55,023 bases of DNA from an uncultured Chlamydiae bacterium (GCA_945957095.1 CAMFKD010000001.1:1-55023), one strand, 5' to 3'. Positions 25,588-29,406 are shown, numbered from the stretch's first letter. Program-made: numbers and translations. The notes: generated by a model not told the origin, from the sequence alone.

Positions 25588-26922
25588 TCACCAGCTGTGT
25601 TTCTTGCGAACAACCTCCCACTGCTTATCGTTAAACTCTTTTATTTCACATCCATAATAAAAATCATTATCATTCAAACCTGAGGCATACTGGTCATTAT
25701 CGTAGTTTCGCCATCCGCACTCTTTACGGGTACTATCTTCCCCTAAGAGGAATAATGTACCATTCCCTTCTTTCAGGCCATTGTGATGGTTGCCCTTCCA
25801 ACATCCATAAGGCCATTCATCTATCCCACAGCTCGTTCCTTCGCCATGCAGAGCCCGAGCTTCACTACTATTATAAACATAATCGCCTTCAGTGTGAAGG
25901 ATACGACCTTCATATACTTGCCCGTTGATCAATCGATTTCCATCGAAGTTGCCGGTTAGTAGTCTTTCAGGAAAATTGGTCTTGACGGTTGTGTTGATAC
26001 ATTGAAAATTTTTCACTGTTGCTTTGACTTCTGGTATATCATGGATGTCGAAATAGCTATTCTTAATATAGTTTCCGTCCTGAAGCCATACGATGGTAGC
26101 CTTTGGGGTTTCGAAGAAGAATTCGGATAGAAATTCAAAAAAACCCACACTTTTCACGCTGGTCGTTTCCCAAAGGAACGTACCATTAGCGATACAAAGA
26201 GGATCTCTCCGATGATCATAATCGATGCAGGAGAGAGAACCAACCCCAGATATCAGCTCATCATCGAGACAACTACCTGCGAATGTAGCGTGATAGACAT
26301 CTCCATCATATTTTCTGTAAGGAGGAACGAACGTAACAGTTTTGTTACACGGATAAGAGGTGTTTGTATTCGAGGGATCTGCTTGAGAAGAATGGGAGAG
26401 TGTACGCGAGCTCTGTGACTGACTGAAACTACTACCGCCAAAGGGCCACCATTGAGTCGGTGGGTCGGATTGAGAACTGGATGATGTTGGCGAGTCGTGT
26501 GAGACACCAGAACCATCTCCGCCACCACGAGAGGTAAGTCTTGCCGTTGGACGATACGCTAGACAGACGGTAGCTAAGCAAACAGCCCCAGTGGCAGCCA
26601 TGAGCGCTCGATATATGGTTGTATTGGCTTGTTTCTTCTTGTCGACAAGCTTTTCGACGCTTTTGACTGCGGGTAATATGGTAGCGATAGCTGGAGCGTG
26701 TGGAGTAGGTGGCTTAATGGCCTGAGCTGTTGTTGGTAGCTTTGATGCGGTTCTTTGGTCGAGAGAAATTCGCTTCATCACAGTAGTCGGCAGTTGTTGT
26801 CCGGCTCTTCTAACAGGCTTTACCCCTGGTTTTCCATGGCCTGCGGTCACAGGCCTTTTGGCTGATTGTGCTGGAGTACTAACCGTGGATGGGTGGAAAG
26901 ACGCTCTTACAGGTGTTGTCAT
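25588..26922 (-). CDS. paralog family member P1: basic N-terminus, single TM, Ser-rich linker, Cys-conserved MORN-like ectodomain
   Basis: 444 aa. MTTPVRASF..., QANTTIYRALMAATGAVCLATVCLAY (TM), an SSSSQS/WWPF linker, GNFDGNRLINGQVYEG...EGDYVYNS, and CWKGNHHNGLKEGNGTLF. Confidence 0.8.
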   Translation of the reverse strand: MTTPVRASFHPSTVSTPAQSAKRPVTAGHGKPGVKPVRRAGQQLPTTVMKRISLDQRTASKLPTTAQAIKPPTPHAPAIATILPAVKSVEKLVDKKKQANTTIYRALMAATGAVCLATVCLAYRPTARLTSRGGGDGSGVSHDSPTSSSSQSDPPTQWWPFGGSSFSQSQSSRTLSHSSQADPSNTNTSYPCNKTVTFVPPYRKYDGDVYHATFAGSCLDDELISGVGSLSCIDYDHRRDPLCIANGTFLWETTSVKSVGFFEFLSEFFFETPKATIVWLQDGNYIKNSYFDIHDIPEVKATVKNFQCINTTVKTNFPERLLTGNFDGNRLINGQVYEGRILHTEGDYVYNSSEARALHGEGTSCGIDEWPYGCWKGNHHNGLKEGNGTLFLLGEDSTRKECGWRNYDNDQYASGLNDNDFYYGCEIKEFNDKQWEVVRKKHSW

Positions 26923-27003
26923 TGATTGATTTTTTTGTGAAAATGATTGGGTGTTTTATATATTTTCATGTATAGCGTAATCGTTTTATTAGTTATGTGC
27001 TTA

Positions 27004-28332
27004 TTAATTATGTGAATAGCGTTTTACATTGCATGTATTCGTATTTTCAAAACCAGAAATCTGCATGTCAGAAGAGTACTCTCGCGATCCGCAGTCGTTA
27101 CGAGAATCGTCATTGTTTATGGAAAATAATGAACCTTTCCCTTCTTTCTTGCCTTTATTATGGTTCCCCTCCCAGCATACGTAACGGTAATGCTCTATGT
27201 TGCAGCTTATGCCTGTGCCATTCAGGAATCGAACTCCATTGCTATCATAAACATAGTCGCCATCGGTCATAAGATCTTGATACTTATATACCTTCCCGCT
27301 GGTCAATTGAGTTCCATTGAAGTTACCGACCAGCTTTTCACTATCCCAAAAATCGCTCCTAACAGTCGTATCGATGAGCAGATAGTCTTTGACTGTTGCT
27401 TCAACTTCTAACCTATCCCAAACACCATTATAACGATCGTAGCCGTCTAACTTGCGATAGTTTCCGTCTTGAAGCTGCACAGTGGTGGTTGGGGAGGAGA
27501 AAATCTGGAAGAGGGCTCCTAAAAAACCCTCCGCTTTCACAGAGGTTGTTGTGATGGAGAATGTACCATTAGCGGTACAGATATGATCGGTGTCATAAAA
27601 ATTAAGATCGTTGCAGAAGAGAGATCCTTCTGTGGATATCAGCTCGCCATTGAGGCAGGTACCATTGAATGTAGCATCATAGATATCTCGATCATCTCTT
27701 TTGTAAGGAGCGATGAACTTAACAGCTTTCGTGCACGCATAGGGATCAGATGTGTTTGTATTCCAGAGAAGTGGTTGAGAAGAATTCAAAGATGTTTGCG
27801 AGCTGTGTGACTGACTGGAACTACTGCTACTGAAGGGCCACCAGTAGTGGGTCGATGAATTCGATTGAGAACTGGACGATGTGTGCAAATCGTTTGAGTT
27901 GTCAGGGGCATTTCCGCTGTTATTAGCACGAGAACTGGAGTGGTCGTTATTGTTGCCCCCCCTTCTTAAGCGGAGATAGACGGCACCTAAGCAAGCGGCG
28001 CCAACGGTAGCCATGAGTGCTCGATACATCGTCGTATTGGCTTGTTCCTTCTTGTCGACAGGTTTCTCGGTAGCCTTAACTGCGGGCGCTATGGCAGCAA
28101 TAGCGGGGGTGTTTGGAGCGGGTGATTTAATGGTCTGAGCTGCTGGCAGCTTCGACGCAGTCTTTTGGTTGGTTGGGATTCGCTTCGTTACAGTAGTCGG
28201 CAGTCGTCGTCCTGCTCTCGCAACGGGTCGTCCTGCTAGCTTTCCGTTGGTTGTAGTCAAGGGGCGTTTGGTTGGTGGTACCAGTTTGCTCGCTGTGGAT
28301 GGGCGGAAAGATGCTCTTACAGGTGTTGTCAT
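27004..28332 (-). CDS. paralog family member P2
   Basis: 442 aa and collinear with P1. MTTPVRASF..., QANTTMYRALMATVGAACLGAVYL, a Ser/Asn-rich linker with WWPF, GNFNGTQLTSGKVYKY...DGDYVYDS, and CWEGNHNKGKKEGKGSLF. Confidence 0.8.
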   Translation of the reverse strand: MTTPVRASFRPSTASKLVPPTKRPLTTTNGKLAGRPVARAGRRLPTTVTKRIPTNQKTASKLPAAQTIKSPAPNTPAIAAIAPAVKATEKPVDKKEQANTTMYRALMATVGAACLGAVYLRLRRGGNNNDHSSSRANNSGNAPDNSNDLHTSSSSQSNSSTHYWWPFSSSSSSQSHSSQTSLNSSQPLLWNTNTSDPYACTKAVKFIAPYKRDDRDIYDATFNGTCLNGELISTEGSLFCNDLNFYDTDHICTANGTFSITTTSVKAEGFLGALFQIFSSPTTTVQLQDGNYRKLDGYDRYNGVWDRLEVEATVKDYLLIDTTVRSDFWDSEKLVGNFNGTQLTSGKVYKYQDLMTDGDYVYDSNGVRFLNGTGISCNIEHYRYVCWEGNHNKGKKEGKGSLFSINNDDSRNDCGSREYSSDMQISGFENTNTCNVKRYSHN

Positions 28333-28347
28333 GATTAACCTTTATTT

Positions 28348-29406
28348 TTAGTAAGTTTGTTGTCCCAAGCTTTGGGTTTGACCATCGCGATAGAGACTAA
28401 ATGCTTCGCCTGTCCCTGTTTTGACGCCATACACATGCTCCCCTGTCCAGCAATCGGTTGCGTTAATCCAATCAGAAGAGCGAGAGCAGCTAGTGCCTAT
28501 ACCATGCAGGTTTCGTTTCCCTTTACTATCATAGACATAATTACCATCGGTATATAGGTGACCCTGAGAGTCGTATACCTCTCCGCTGGTCAGTTCACGG
28601 TTGCTGAAGTTACCGATCAGTTTTTCTAGGCTGAATAAGTCGGAAATGGTCGTGTTGATCCATTCTGTGCCATTGATTGTTCCGCGGAACGTTAAAAAGA
28701 AACTTTGTTTCTCAAAATTTCCTTCCTGAAGCTTTAACGTGCGTTCGGAAGTCGTCAAATATTTTATGTAATCCCAAAAACTTCTAGACAGAACTTCTTC
28801 AGCACTCATTGAGGTAAACGTGCCATTAGCAGTGCAAGGAGTTTGGTTCCCATTAGTCTCGTCCGTGCAGAAAAGAGAACCCGTTAAGGATGTGAGCTCA
28901 CCGTTTAAACAAGTACCTTGGAATTCCGCATCGCTTGTGTGTATTAGATTATAGGGAGCTAGAAATTTGACGACTTTAGTGCATGGATAAGGTAGGGCTG
29001 TGTTTGAGGGAGCTGGGTCGTCAGAAGAGTGGGAGCTATTGTTGGATCCCGCTGTTAAGCGAAGAGCCAGGTAAGCGGCACCTAAGCAAGCTCCTCCAGC
29101 GGCAGCCATGAGTGCTCGATGCATGGTTGTATTGGCCTGCTCTTTTTTAATTGCAGGCGCTATGTCAGCAACAGCAGGGGTGTTTGGAGCGGGTGGCTTA
29201 ATGGTCTGAGCTGTCGGCAGCTTCGACGCGGTCTGTTGGTTGGCTGGGATTTGCTTCGCGACATTGATGCGCAGTTGTTGTCCTGCTGTAGCAACGGGTC
29301 GTCCCGCTAGCTTTCCGTTGGCTGTAATGACAGGCCGTCTGGCTGGCTGTTGTACCGGCTTGCCAGTCGTGGATCGATGGAAAGATGCTCTTACAGGTAT
29401 TGTCAT
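28348..29406 (-). CDS. paralog family member P3 (short-linker version)
   Basis: 352 aa. MTIPVRASF..., QANTTMHRALMAAAGGACLGAAYLAL, almost no Ser-rich linker, GNFSNRELTSGEVYDS...DGNYVYDS, and CWTGEHVYGVKTGTGEAF. Its stop is 15 bp from the P2 start. Confidence 0.8.
   Translation of the reverse strand: MTIPVRASFHRSTTGKPVQQPARRPVITANGKLAGRPVATAGQQLRINVAKQIPANQQTASKLPTAQTIKPPAPNTPAVADIAPAIKKEQANTTMHRALMAAAGGACLGAAYLALRLTAGSNNSSHSSDDPAPSNTALPYPCTKVVKFLAPYNLIHTSDAEFQGTCLNGELTSLTGSLFCTDETNGNQTPCTANGTFTSMSAEEVLSRSFWDYIKYLTTSERTLKLQEGNFEKQSFFLTFRGTINGTEWINTTISDLFSLEKLIGNFSNRELTSGEVYDSQGHLYTDGNYVYDSKGKRNLHGIGTSCSRSSDWINATDCWTGEHVYGVKTGTGEAFSLYRDGQTQSLGQQTY

Follow-up and report, generated by a model that had tools for sequence, protein, structure and literature searches.

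A tandem array of chlamydial genes encodes an unrecognised protein family with a predicted MORN-like domain

Background

Amoebae and giant viruses are both rich in MORN proteins. In the junctophilins, which are eukaryotic cytosolic tethers, a MORN-type array occurs together with a single hydrophobic anchor and a spacer of low complexity, the repeats being N-terminal and the tail anchor C-terminal. Inc proteins have a bilobed hydrophobic domain of about 40-60 aa, made of two adjacent transmembrane segments. The MORN unit as described by Sajko et al. (2020) comprises 23 residues, of which 1-3 are GxG, 5-7 LxY, 10 is G and 13-17 are YEGEW, and is repeated in tandem; the MORN proteins studied to date are cytosolic, and some arrays dimerise via zinc bound by Cys/Asp (PMC7725318). 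Transmembrane substrates of T3SS/T4BSS mostly have one or two transmembrane segments beside a chaperone-binding domain, and under the criterion of Krampen et al. (2018) the one or two segments are intermediate, that is, less hydrophobic than those of resident single-span proteins (PMC6110835). In chlamydial elementary bodies, proteins cross-linked by disulfides stabilise the envelope (PMC3561449).

Here we describe three proteins, P1-P3, encoded within a 55,023-nucleotide stretch of DNA from an uncultured Chlamydiae bacterium (the window), which can be compared with each of these systems. By analogy they would share a predicted MORN-type array, a putative single anchor and a spacer with the junctophilins, but the domain order is reversed and there is no sequence homology. 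They resemble MORN proteins (PF02493; TbMORN1/TgMORN1/PfMORN1, MORN3, RSPH1 and giant-virus members) in a predicted elongated single-layer beta-hairpin sheet and in one full-spacing unit per paralog, two GxG motifs and three aromatic cores; they differ in having conserved Cys pairs at aromatic positions and in the place of the domain, which follows a putative hydrophobic anchor and probably lies outside the cytoplasm, unlike the known cytosolic arrays (PMC7725318). Like Inc proteins and T3SS transmembrane substrates they have a disordered acid-free N-terminus followed by an intermediate hydrophobic segment (PMC6110835), and they are likewise lineage-specific, paralog-rich and fast-evolving. 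However, they have a single 18-19-residue segment and not the bilobed Inc domain, they carry a large Cys-conserved beta domain, and they show no homology to any Inc. OmcA/OmcB of the chlamydial outer membrane complex are similarly Cys-rich, in organisms with a disulfide-cross-linked elementary-body envelope (PMC3561449), P1-P3 being probably extracytoplasmic as well, but P1-P3 have no sequence similarity to them (Pfam, NCBIfam) and a different predicted fold. P1-P3 also lack a signal peptide and a lipobox; their anchor would be a hydrophobic segment within the chain.

Gene array and genomic setting

The array consists of P3 (positions 28348-29406, 352 aa), its first gene, followed by P2 (27004-28332, 442 aa) and P1 (25588-26922, 444 aa). 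All three genes lie on the minus strand and are separated by 15 bp (P2/P3) and 81 bp (P1/P2). The ORF list confirms these coordinates, which were given in a preliminary description of the sequence, and the tandem arrangement is operon-like, as had been proposed there. All three are also called as genes in independent assemblies and are identical in sequence across four of them; P2 is identical to P0001 of the protein collection. The three are paralogs with 46-54% amino acid identity, and their alignment bears out the four-part plan and the motifs that had been reported; in P3 the Ser-rich linker and the C-terminal extension are largely missing. The source organism is a chlamydia, as previously assumed: the window encodes two TLC transporters and a DUF2709 neighbour that is ~70-72% identical to named Protochlamydia proteins. 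The neighbouring genes are all housekeeping and offer no functional hint.

The array lies in a 4.4-kb segment (25479-29874) between a DEAD-box helicase gene and an Aminotran_4 gene, as delimited by gene maps and blastn of the flanks. In L085, the nearest sampled relative, the DEAD-helicase and aminotransferase genes are 171 bp apart, and the flanks are syntenic by blastn (window 24445-25477 with L085 5456-6488; window 29923-30810 with L085 6660-7547). Because L085 has only this short spacer at the syntenic site, the cluster is lineage-specific.

Homolog searches and selection

No match to P1-P3 was found in Pfam, NCBIfam, PHROGs, PADLOC or PDB profiles. Searches of 5.8 billion clusters and of 1.84 billion representative proteins gave no homolog outside their own species; in the latter set, an exhaustive search by HMM recovered the species' own copies of the family and no other homolog. 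The view that the family is unrecognised is therefore upheld. The single non-self match was P0006, an 882-aa cohesin-repeat protein (hmmsearch E 7e-6, summed over 3 repeats). Kinship with cohesins through this protein is probably spurious, as hhalign gave a probability of 35% over 49 columns at 22% identity and Pfam cohesin has no match in P1-P3.

Between the paralogs, the ectodomain has a dN/dS of 0.26-0.58, the N-terminus of 0.33-0.46 and the linker of about 0.5-1.2; P1-P3 are therefore real coding genes. The N-terminus and ectodomain are under purifying selection and the linker is nearly neutral. Paralog pS is 0.28-0.70, versus saturated values of 0.76-0.89 in flanking orthologs, and the duplications appear younger than the split from L085. 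Paralog dN (0.37-0.51) exceeds that of the flanking genes (0.09-0.30) although the latter are compared at much greater depth, and the family is therefore fast-evolving. Its 5' module has been homogenised between P2 and P3, with a pS of 0.28 versus 0.70 in the ectodomain.

Spurious ORFs or decaying, functionless pseudogenes might be suspected from the lack of homologs and annotation anywhere and from the low-complexity stretches. That reading is effectively refuted: all three ORFs are long and intact and their starts are conserved, dN/dS stays well under 1 except in the linker, Cys, Gly and aromatic positions are selectively conserved, codon usage is native, the domain is foldable in the model and the sequence is identical in four independent assemblies. 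P1-P3 are a genuine new, unrecognised family with a probably MORN-like fold.

N-terminal region, hydrophobic segment and linker

All three proteins start with MT(T/I)PVRASF, the opening 9 aa being nearly invariant, and the first 25 aa contain 9-12 Ser/Thr/Pro and no Asp/Glu. The basic Pro/Thr/Ala-rich N-terminal region of P1 (26632-26922, minus strand; aa 1-97, net charge +14) is predicted to be disordered, with pLDDT <30; its equivalents are aa 1-96 of P2 and aa 1-89 of P3. Net charge over the first 97 aa is +12 to +16, with merely 2-3 acidic residues ahead of the hydrophobic segment, in line with the basic, acid-poor character noted earlier. No Sec signal peptide is present in P1-P3, whose N-terminus (MTTPVRASF...) lacks a hydrophobic h-region. 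The QANTT(I/M)(Y/H)RALMA motif is confirmed in the paralog alignment.

Each protein has one hydrophobic segment and no second peak. The putative single transmembrane helix of P1, IYRALMAATGAVCLATVCL (26560-26616, minus strand; aa 103-121), has a KD19 of 1.72 and a Hessa sum of +2.4, and corresponds to MYRALMATVGAACLGAVYL in P2 (27973-28029, minus strand; aa 102-120; KD19 1.39) and LMAAAGGACLGAAYLALRL in P3 (29056-29112, minus strand; aa 99-117; KD19 1.53). It comprises 18-19 uncharged residues with Arg at both sides and occupies the same position in all three paralogs. This "TM helix" is only marginally hydrophobic: its KD19 of 1.39-1.72 and Hessa sum of +2.4 to +3.9 compare with 2.25-2.87 and +0.9 to -3.7 for resident membrane proteins in the window. 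Thus the single conserved helix of the preliminary description stands as a segment, but its hydrophobicity is marginal, and the type II topology proposed with it is not established, the hydrophobicity being only intermediate.

It is accordingly conceivable, if rather improbable in our estimation, that P1-P3 are soluble or peripheral cytoplasmic proteins. The stretch would then be a helix that is buried or amphipathic, nucleic acid or acidic lipids would be bound by the basic tail, the MORN-like domain would act inside the bacterium, and the Cys would be metal-binding or structural. The KD19 of the segment overlaps that of soluble enzymes in the window, such as IspF (1.67) and EPSP synthase (1.82), the tail is histone-tail-like by composition, and known MORN arrays are cytosolic, some dimerising via Cys/Asp-bound zinc (PMC7725318). 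Yet the uncharged, Arg-flanked segment is kept in position in 3/3 paralogs, its Hessa sum lies below that of most soluble proteins in the window (mostly 5-10), the Cys spacing is unlike a zinc-binding motif, and the Ser-rich spacer right behind the segment resembles an extracytoplasmic stalk. In P1 this low-complexity linker with WWPF, delimited by alignment, covers aa 125-186 (26365-26550, minus strand); the Ser/Asn-rich WWPF linker occurs in P1 and P2 only and is nearly missing in P3.

The same N-terminal features could be those of type III-secreted, membrane-targeted effectors, the main rival reading, which we consider possible but less likely than an envelope role. The acid-free Ser/Thr/Pro-rich N-terminus would be the secretion signal and the next ~70 disordered residues the chaperone-binding region; the moderately hydrophobic segment would evade SRP and insert in the host or inclusion membrane; and the MORN-like domain would engage host proteins or membranes, like the eukaryote-like domain effectors of amoeba symbionts. 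The composition of the first 25 aa and the nearly invariant start favour this, as do the homogenised 5' module of P2/P3 and the lineage specificity, tandem expansion and fast evolution that are typical of host-interaction genes. P1-P3 also have the intermediate hydrophobicity of the single segment that marks the niche of T3SS/T4BSS transmembrane substrates (PMC6110835), which does not show secretion. Against it, the bilobed hydrophobic domain of Inc proteins is missing, no small acidic chaperone gene lies within or beside the cluster, and the very strong positive N-terminal charge is not a known T3S feature.

Ectodomain and its resemblance to MORN repeats

The ectodomain probably folds like MORN repeats, as a beta-hairpin array. 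The AF2 model, with the three-sequence alignment as input, is of only moderate confidence (pLDDT 64.5, pTM 0.60) and is all-beta, with 15 strands in 259 aa; 13 of these fall in P1 aa 187-410, the conserved Cys-containing domain (25693-26364, minus strand) predicted as a MORN-like beta-hairpin array from the model and Foldseek. By alignment, the ectodomain spans aa 192-442 in P2 (27007-27759, minus strand) and aa 134-352 in P3 (28351-29007, minus strand). The best Foldseek matches of the ectodomain model in the PDB are MORN3, RSP10, FAP266 and TgMORN1 (best E 0.12), and in BFVD ~33 of the first 50 are giant-virus proteins with MORN in their names (best E 9e-3, highest probability 0.99), so MORN proteins mostly head the matches, but in neither database does any match have E <= 0.001, and TM-scores lie near 0.3. 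Junctophilin-1 is among the weak matches of the full-length model.

In sequence, each paralog contains one unit with the complete spacing aromatic-x-G-x-aromatic-x2-G-x3-G-x-G-x2-F: WKGNHHNGLKEGNGTLF in P1 (25750-25800, minus strand; aa 375-391, the best MORN-like unit by repeat HMM and hhalign), and its equivalents WEGNHNKGKKEGKGSLF in P2 (27124-27174, minus strand) and WTGEHVYGVKTGTGEAF in P3 (28399-28449, minus strand). The Gly/aromatic motifs are confirmed in the alignment, with two invariant GxG motifs (P1 G360xG362 and G386xG388) and three conserved 'aromatic-x-G-x-aromatic/Cys' cores; the remaining hairpins are degenerate and irregular in length. An HMM built from solved MORN1/RSPH1 repeats scored 8.5 bits on P1 (0/300 shuffles equal) and 3.9 bits on P2 (1/300), but was not significant on P3 (-2.3 bits). 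Alignment of the ectodomain to Tg/Pf/Tb MORN1 by hhalign, covering the P1 aa 375-391 stretch, gave a score of 19.8 and a probability of 1.2% over 37 columns, equalled by 1/200 column-shuffled controls. Pfam MORN (PF02493) did not match at E <= 10, either in the full proteins or in the C-terminal 101-144 aa alone, and the ectodomain profile found no MORN chain in the PDB at E <= 10 by hmmsearch. The MORN resemblance first reported thus holds at the level of fold and of one unit by sequence, but not for the Pfam model.

That MORN proteins of eukaryotes and giant viruses are the ectodomain's nearest structural neighbours would suit effectors. It also raises the prospect, which we regard as quite unlikely, that an amoeba host, or a giant virus co-infecting it, donated the ectodomain by horizontal transfer and that the sequence then diverged past recognition, a claim about origin that is compatible with every functional scenario. 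The BFVD matches are dominated by MORN proteins of Pandoravirus, Mimivirus-like, Orpheovirus and Solumvirus; compared with L085 the cluster is inserted DNA; GC3 of the three genes is 0.40-0.46 versus 0.518 +/- 0.044 in 32 neighbouring genes; and a signal-anchor, Ser-rich stalk and Cys-rich domain together resemble a eukaryotic type II membrane glycoprotein. However, no eukaryotic or viral sequence homolog exists among the 1.84 billion representatives, synonymous codon choice is in the native range (z -0.3 to -0.8), any beta-hairpin array would match MORN models, which are plentiful in BFVD, and a gene that arose de novo, or a native one that diverged to an extreme, fits the data equally well.

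The six invariant Cys of the ectodomain (C192, C218, C232, C243, C365 and C374 in P1) and the two further ones common to P1 and P2 are as originally described; in P3, 6/6 lie within the 73 columns, among 219, that are invariant, so the Cys are conserved above average (hypergeometric P = 0.0012). The conserved number is even, 6, or 8 in P1/P2. In the AF2 model C192, C218, C232 and C243 are predicted in or beside strands 1-4 and C365 and C374 to flank one hairpin loop; in MORN register, C218 is at the W of YEGEW and C232 at the Y of LxY. For effectors this is awkward, as 6-8 conserved, apparently paired Cys would be reduced in the host cytosol. Sequons, earlier called conspicuous, are enriched over composition-matched shuffles in P3 (9 vs 4.0 expected, P = 0.007), borderline in P1 (7 vs 3.8, P = 0.064) and not enriched in P2 (9 vs 7.5, P = 0.32); their abundance is mostly compositional and its enrichment significant in P3 only.

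A possible role in the cell envelope

We infer the topology, the disulfides and the envelope role of P1-P3 as follows. The C-terminal part of the proteins is acidic (K+R 16-29 vs D+E 26-41) and the N-terminal 97 aa basic, so the positive-inside rule points to an N-in orientation. Our favoured, though still tentative, reading is that P1-P3 are N-in/C-out envelope proteins with a disulfide-stapled MORN-like periplasmic domain. The family, which is limited to one environmental chlamydial lineage, would be young: its origin, or at any rate its triplication, would postdate the divergence from L085. Each member would be a bitopic cell-envelope protein whose ~95-aa very basic disordered N-terminus is kept in the bacterial cytoplasm. 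Its conserved segment, rich in Ala/Gly/Leu/Cys, would hold it in the inner membrane as a weak signal-anchor, and the Ser-rich spacer, dispensable in P3, would project the C-terminal domain to the oxidising periplasm. There the domain would form an elongated sheet of MORN-type beta-hairpins, in which part of the usual aromatic/Gly packing may give way to disulfides that link strands or close loops, three of them in P3 and four in P1 and P2. Like other MORN arrays it could be a scaffold for protein-protein interaction or oligomerisation, and in elementary bodies it may become part of the envelope network that disulfides cross-link.

A bolder and unlikely extension is that P1-P3 are the first extracytoplasmic, disulfide-stapled MORN-type repeat, derived by amoeba/giant-virus transfer or de novo, recruited into the redox-controlled envelope of an environmental chlamydia and rapidly diversified by tandem duplication as a determinant of host range or surface architecture. 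If this were true, the MORN-type class, otherwise known only as cytosolic, would gain an extracytoplasmic version.

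Features of the three-gene cluster

P3 (28348..29406, 352 aa), P2 (27004..28332, 442 aa) and P1 (25588..26922, 444 aa) are open reading frames (ORFs) arranged head-to-tail on the minus strand, with spacings of 15 and 81 bp. In a MAFFT alignment P2 and P3 are 52% and 46% identical to P1, respectively, and every motif listed in the preliminary description is recovered. All three proteins start with MT(T/I)PVRASF, and QANTT(I/M)(Y/H)RALMA directly precedes the hydrophobic stretch; the WWPF motif and the Ser/Asn-rich linker are found in P1 and P2 only. The C-terminal cysteine-containing domain (ectodomain) spans 220-260 aa. 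The alignment confirms its six invariant cysteines (C192, C218, C232, C243, C365 and C374 in P1 numbering) and two additional ones common to P1 and P2 (C402 and C425); all six of those in the P3 ectodomain fall within the 73 invariant columns of 219 (hypergeometric P = 0.0012). The N-terminus is as acid-poor as had been described, with 2-3 acidic residues ahead of the hydrophobic segment; the net charge over the N-terminal 97 residues lies between +12 and +16.

Between paralogs, the Nei-Gojobori dN/dS is 0.33-0.46 in the N-terminus and 0.26-0.58 in the ectodomain, indicating purifying selection on both, and is near-neutral in the linker (about 0.5-1.2). P1-P3 are thus genuine genes under constraint rather than chance ORFs; a reading as spurious ORFs or pseudogenes is effectively excluded. 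Their GC3 (0.40, 0.46 and 0.44) is lower than in 32 genes of the neighbourhood (0.518 +/- 0.044), and their GC2, at 0.48-0.50 vs 0.40, is unusually high because of their Ser/Thr/Ala/Pro/Gly-rich composition. Their codon choice matches that of native genes (z -0.3 to -0.8). The short intergenic gaps within 25588-29406 are very AT-rich (GC 0.20-0.29), and promoter and terminator scans gave no signal above shuffle expectation. The locus is present in three ENA assemblies and one Logan assembly (source samples ERZ12289970/74/64 and SRR12456165); all four are 100% identical and thus offer no variation for strain polymorphism or between-sample dN/dS.

Genomic context and lineage restriction

The genes flanking the cluster are housekeeping genes. 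One flank encodes two TLC nucleotide transporters, PGK, PNPOx, RNase T, a GTPase, TsaE, a DUF2709 protein and Aminotran_4; the other encodes a DEAD-box helicase, ArgRS, a radical-SAM protein, EPSP synthase and IspF. The DUF2709 protein has 2552 homologs, and the named ones belong to Protochlamydia, at about 70-72% identity. By this protein, therefore, the source organism is an environmental chlamydia near Protochlamydia-like Chlamydiota. TLC nucleotide transporters are a hallmark of the energy-parasitic chlamydial lifestyle; the two in the window are in tandem (35863-37470 and 37543-39102, plus strand), and each has about 9 segments of strong hydrophobicity.

The preliminary description had called the family unrecognised, and database searches uphold this. 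Among 5.8 billion protein clusters, a profile search matched only the window's own proteins, and family patterns found no relative among the GTDB representative genomes, a collection that apparently does not hold this genome. Scans of Pfam, NCBIfam, PHROGs and PADLOC yielded nothing beyond noise (Hus1, DUF4432, DUF1786, SAG1386 and GltJ, E 0.13-4), as did a PDB sequence-profile search (LmuA only, E 1.3). When 1.84 billion 50%-identity representatives were searched exhaustively with hmmsearch, the three self matches were joined by a single weak one, the metagenomic 882-aa cohesin-repeat protein P0006 (E 7e-6, summed over three repeats). P1 aa 243-291 (about 26050-26196, CIANGTF...LQDGNYIK) weakly resembles every P0006 repeat and aligns to its aa 312-360 with 22% identity over 49 residues. 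The likeness is probably a chance match of beta-strand patterns; a cohesin relation was not adopted, the hhalign probability being 35% and the score repeat-inflated.

Relatives for synteny comparison were found through homologs of the DUF2709 protein. The closest sampled one carries the syntenic locus L085 on a 3.9-Mb contig (ERZ25039454 contig_1137), and its DUF2709 protein is 86% identical. In L085 the DEAD-box helicase and Aminotran_4 genes are divergent and adjoining, 171 bp apart. By blastn both flanks of the window align to L085 and nothing between them does, which makes the 4.4-kb segment 25479-29874 particular to the source lineage. With tblastn, no remnant was detected at the relatives' loci and no further copy elsewhere in the window.

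Flanking orthologs in the window and the L085 genome are synonymously saturated (pS 0.76-0.89), whereas pS among the paralogs is 0.28-0.70. On these synonymous distances, the duplications would be younger than the split from the nearest relative, unless the copies have been homogenised by gene conversion. At the protein level the family diverges fast: paralog dN is 0.37-0.51, compared with 0.09-0.30 for housekeeping orthologs across a much longer time. P2 and P3 differ little in their 5' module (pS 0.28) compared with their ectodomains (pS 0.70), a difference that points to gene conversion or to constraint on the nucleotide sequence of the 5' end. In a comparison of the 5' 290 nt (P2 28076-28332 vs P3 29147-29406), a 200-nt block is 84% identical, and the likeness reaches 11-45 nt upstream of the start codons.

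Several other features of the neighbourhood were observed. L085 carries a third TLC gene after the two. The DEAD-box helicase of the window (24135-25478, minus strand) is a syntenic ortholog of the L085 helicase (70% aa); its best GTDB-representative matches, from a pattern-seeded, biased search, share 58-64% aa identity with it and come from Betaproteobacteria, among them Burkholderiales and Nitrosomonas. Scanning genome contigs with this helicase for syntenic relatives found proteobacterial and other non-chlamydial loci only. The gene may be an old transfer from Betaproteobacteria into the chlamydial clade. In the nearest relative an IS110-family transposase lies between Aminotran_4 and DUF2709 (7932-9203 in L085; 6146-7418 in L086, a further locus of the synteny comparison), adjoining the site that holds the three-gene cluster in the window. 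The gene orders of two more loci of that comparison (L087 and L088) differ at this site. Given the transposase and the differing orders, the neighbourhood is rearrangement-prone in this clade.

The spacer between the starts of P3 (29406) and Aminotran_4 (29875) contains, at 29559-29845, two 28-nt inverted-repeat arms (86% complementary) that enclose a strongly structured element of about 290 nt (RNA MFE -111 kcal/mol, z -4.6); a hairpin of 18 bp lies inside it (29674-29733). The element occurs once in the window, is missing from the nearest relative's 171-bp spacer and has no Rfam match at E <= 1. A metagenome scan with a 16-mer of the repeat arm, a pattern too short for the purpose, produced 120+ single matches attributable to chance, and no match contained both arms. 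The element may be what is left of a MITE-like sequence, or else the leader RNA of one of the two divergent transcription units.

MORN likeness of the ectodomain

The full-length AlphaFold2 model is poor (pLDDT 38) and was replaced by a model of the ectodomain only (pLDDT 64.5, pTM 0.60), which is all-beta with 15 strands in consecutive hairpins. A Foldseek search of PDB and BFVD with this model returned nothing at E <= 0.001. MORN proteins nevertheless lead both lists: MORN3, RSP10, FAP266 and TgMORN1 in PDB (best E 0.12), and in BFVD giant-virus proteins with MORN names, to which about 33 of the first 50 matches belong (E 9e-3 at best, TM about 0.3, probabilities reaching 0.99). An origin of the family by transfer from an amoeba or a giant virus is possible, but finds no support in the sequences.

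Solved MORN proteins were retrieved with a consensus bait, and a repeat HMM was built from their real repeats. It scores 8.5 bits on P1 (0 of 300 shuffles as high) and 3.9 bits on P2 (1 of 300), and not above chance on P3. In hhalign the family scores 19.8 against aligned MORN1 arrays (probability 1.2%; 1 of 200 column-shuffled controls as high). An ad hoc composite-MORN regular expression was too tailored to P1 and was dropped as statistics. Structurally, the MORN unit is a 23-residue beta-hairpin plus loop with GxG, LxY, G10 and YEGEW elements (Sajko et al., PMC7725318). One unit in each paralog has the complete MORN spacing (WKGNHHNGLKEGNGTLF, WEGNHNKGKKEGKGSLF and WTGEHVYGVKTGTGEAF); two GxG motifs are invariant in the family and three aromatic-x-G-x-aromatic/Cys cores are conserved.

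In the MORN register, C218 stands where YEGEW has its Trp and C232 where LxY has its Tyr, and C365 and C374 flank a single hairpin loop. This pattern fits putative cross-strand disulfides in place of aromatic packing. The ectodomain probably folds and works like a MORN-type hairpin array. The resemblance proposed earlier thus stands at the level of the fold and of one motif. It does not extend to MORN family membership by curated criteria, no curated library matching any part of the proteins.

Topology and proposed role

P1-P3 have no Sec signal peptide. The hydrophobic helix of the preliminary description is present in all three, as 18-19 uncharged, Arg-flanked residues rich in Ala, Gly, Leu and Cys, but it is marginal. 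Its hydrophobicity (KD19 1.39-1.72, Hessa sum +2.4 to +3.9) is below that of bona fide membrane proteins in the same window (KD19 2.25-2.87, Hessa sums +0.9 to -3.7), and its KD19 overlaps that of soluble enzymes (IspF 1.67, EPSP synthase 1.82). Such a segment would also suit cytoplasmic, non-membrane proteins, which we regard as improbable. The charge asymmetry predicts an N-in/C-out orientation.

N-x-S/T sequons, previously described as frequent, exceed composition-matched shuffles in P3 (P = 0.007), borderline in P1 (P = 0.064) and not in P2 (P = 0.32). The excess is mostly compositional, no bacterial-type D/E-x-N-x-S/T context is conserved among them, and N-glycosylation was rejected.

Transmembrane substrates of type III/IVB secretion likewise have intermediate hydrophobicity, mostly in one or two segments beside a chaperone-binding region (Krampen et al., PMC6110835). 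P1-P3 might therefore be type III-secreted single-span effectors, as their nearly invariant, acid-free, S/T/P-rich N-terminus, their eukaryote- and virus-like predicted fold and their fast, lineage-specific expansion would also suggest; we consider this main rival rather unlikely, as the cysteines are conserved, the proteins have no bilobed hydrophobic domain and no chaperone gene lies in or beside the cluster. The even, over-conserved, hairpin-adjacent cysteines and the charge asymmetry favour an envelope location, and we tentatively propose that P1-P3 are bitopic envelope proteins with a disulfide-stapled MORN-like periplasmic domain. The basic tail would be cytoplasmic, the hydrophobic segment a weak signal-anchor in the inner membrane and the Ser-rich stretch a spacer; the stapled domain, on the periplasmic side, would be a module for interaction or oligomerisation. 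It may be part of the disulfide-cross-linked envelope that is typical of chlamydial elementary bodies (PMC3561449). The topology and the envelope role are offered as hypotheses.

Implications

Lineage-specific genes of unknown role are numerous in environmental chlamydiae, where species-restricted orphan families like P1-P3 are common. What is unusual here is a probable Cys-stapled MORN-like domain behind a weak membrane anchor. The practical weight is limited, the family being confined to a single uncultured lineage. The cluster is a clean, datable case in which one locus gained a gene that then tripled and quickly diverged, keeping the N-terminal module and the Cys/Gly/aromatic scaffold. If secreted, P1-P3 would represent a new single-span class of membrane effector. 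If the disulfide-stapled, extracytoplasmic MORN-type array is true, it would take a widespread repeat, of still debated function, beyond its known range, and would add a new component class to the redox-regulated chlamydial envelope.
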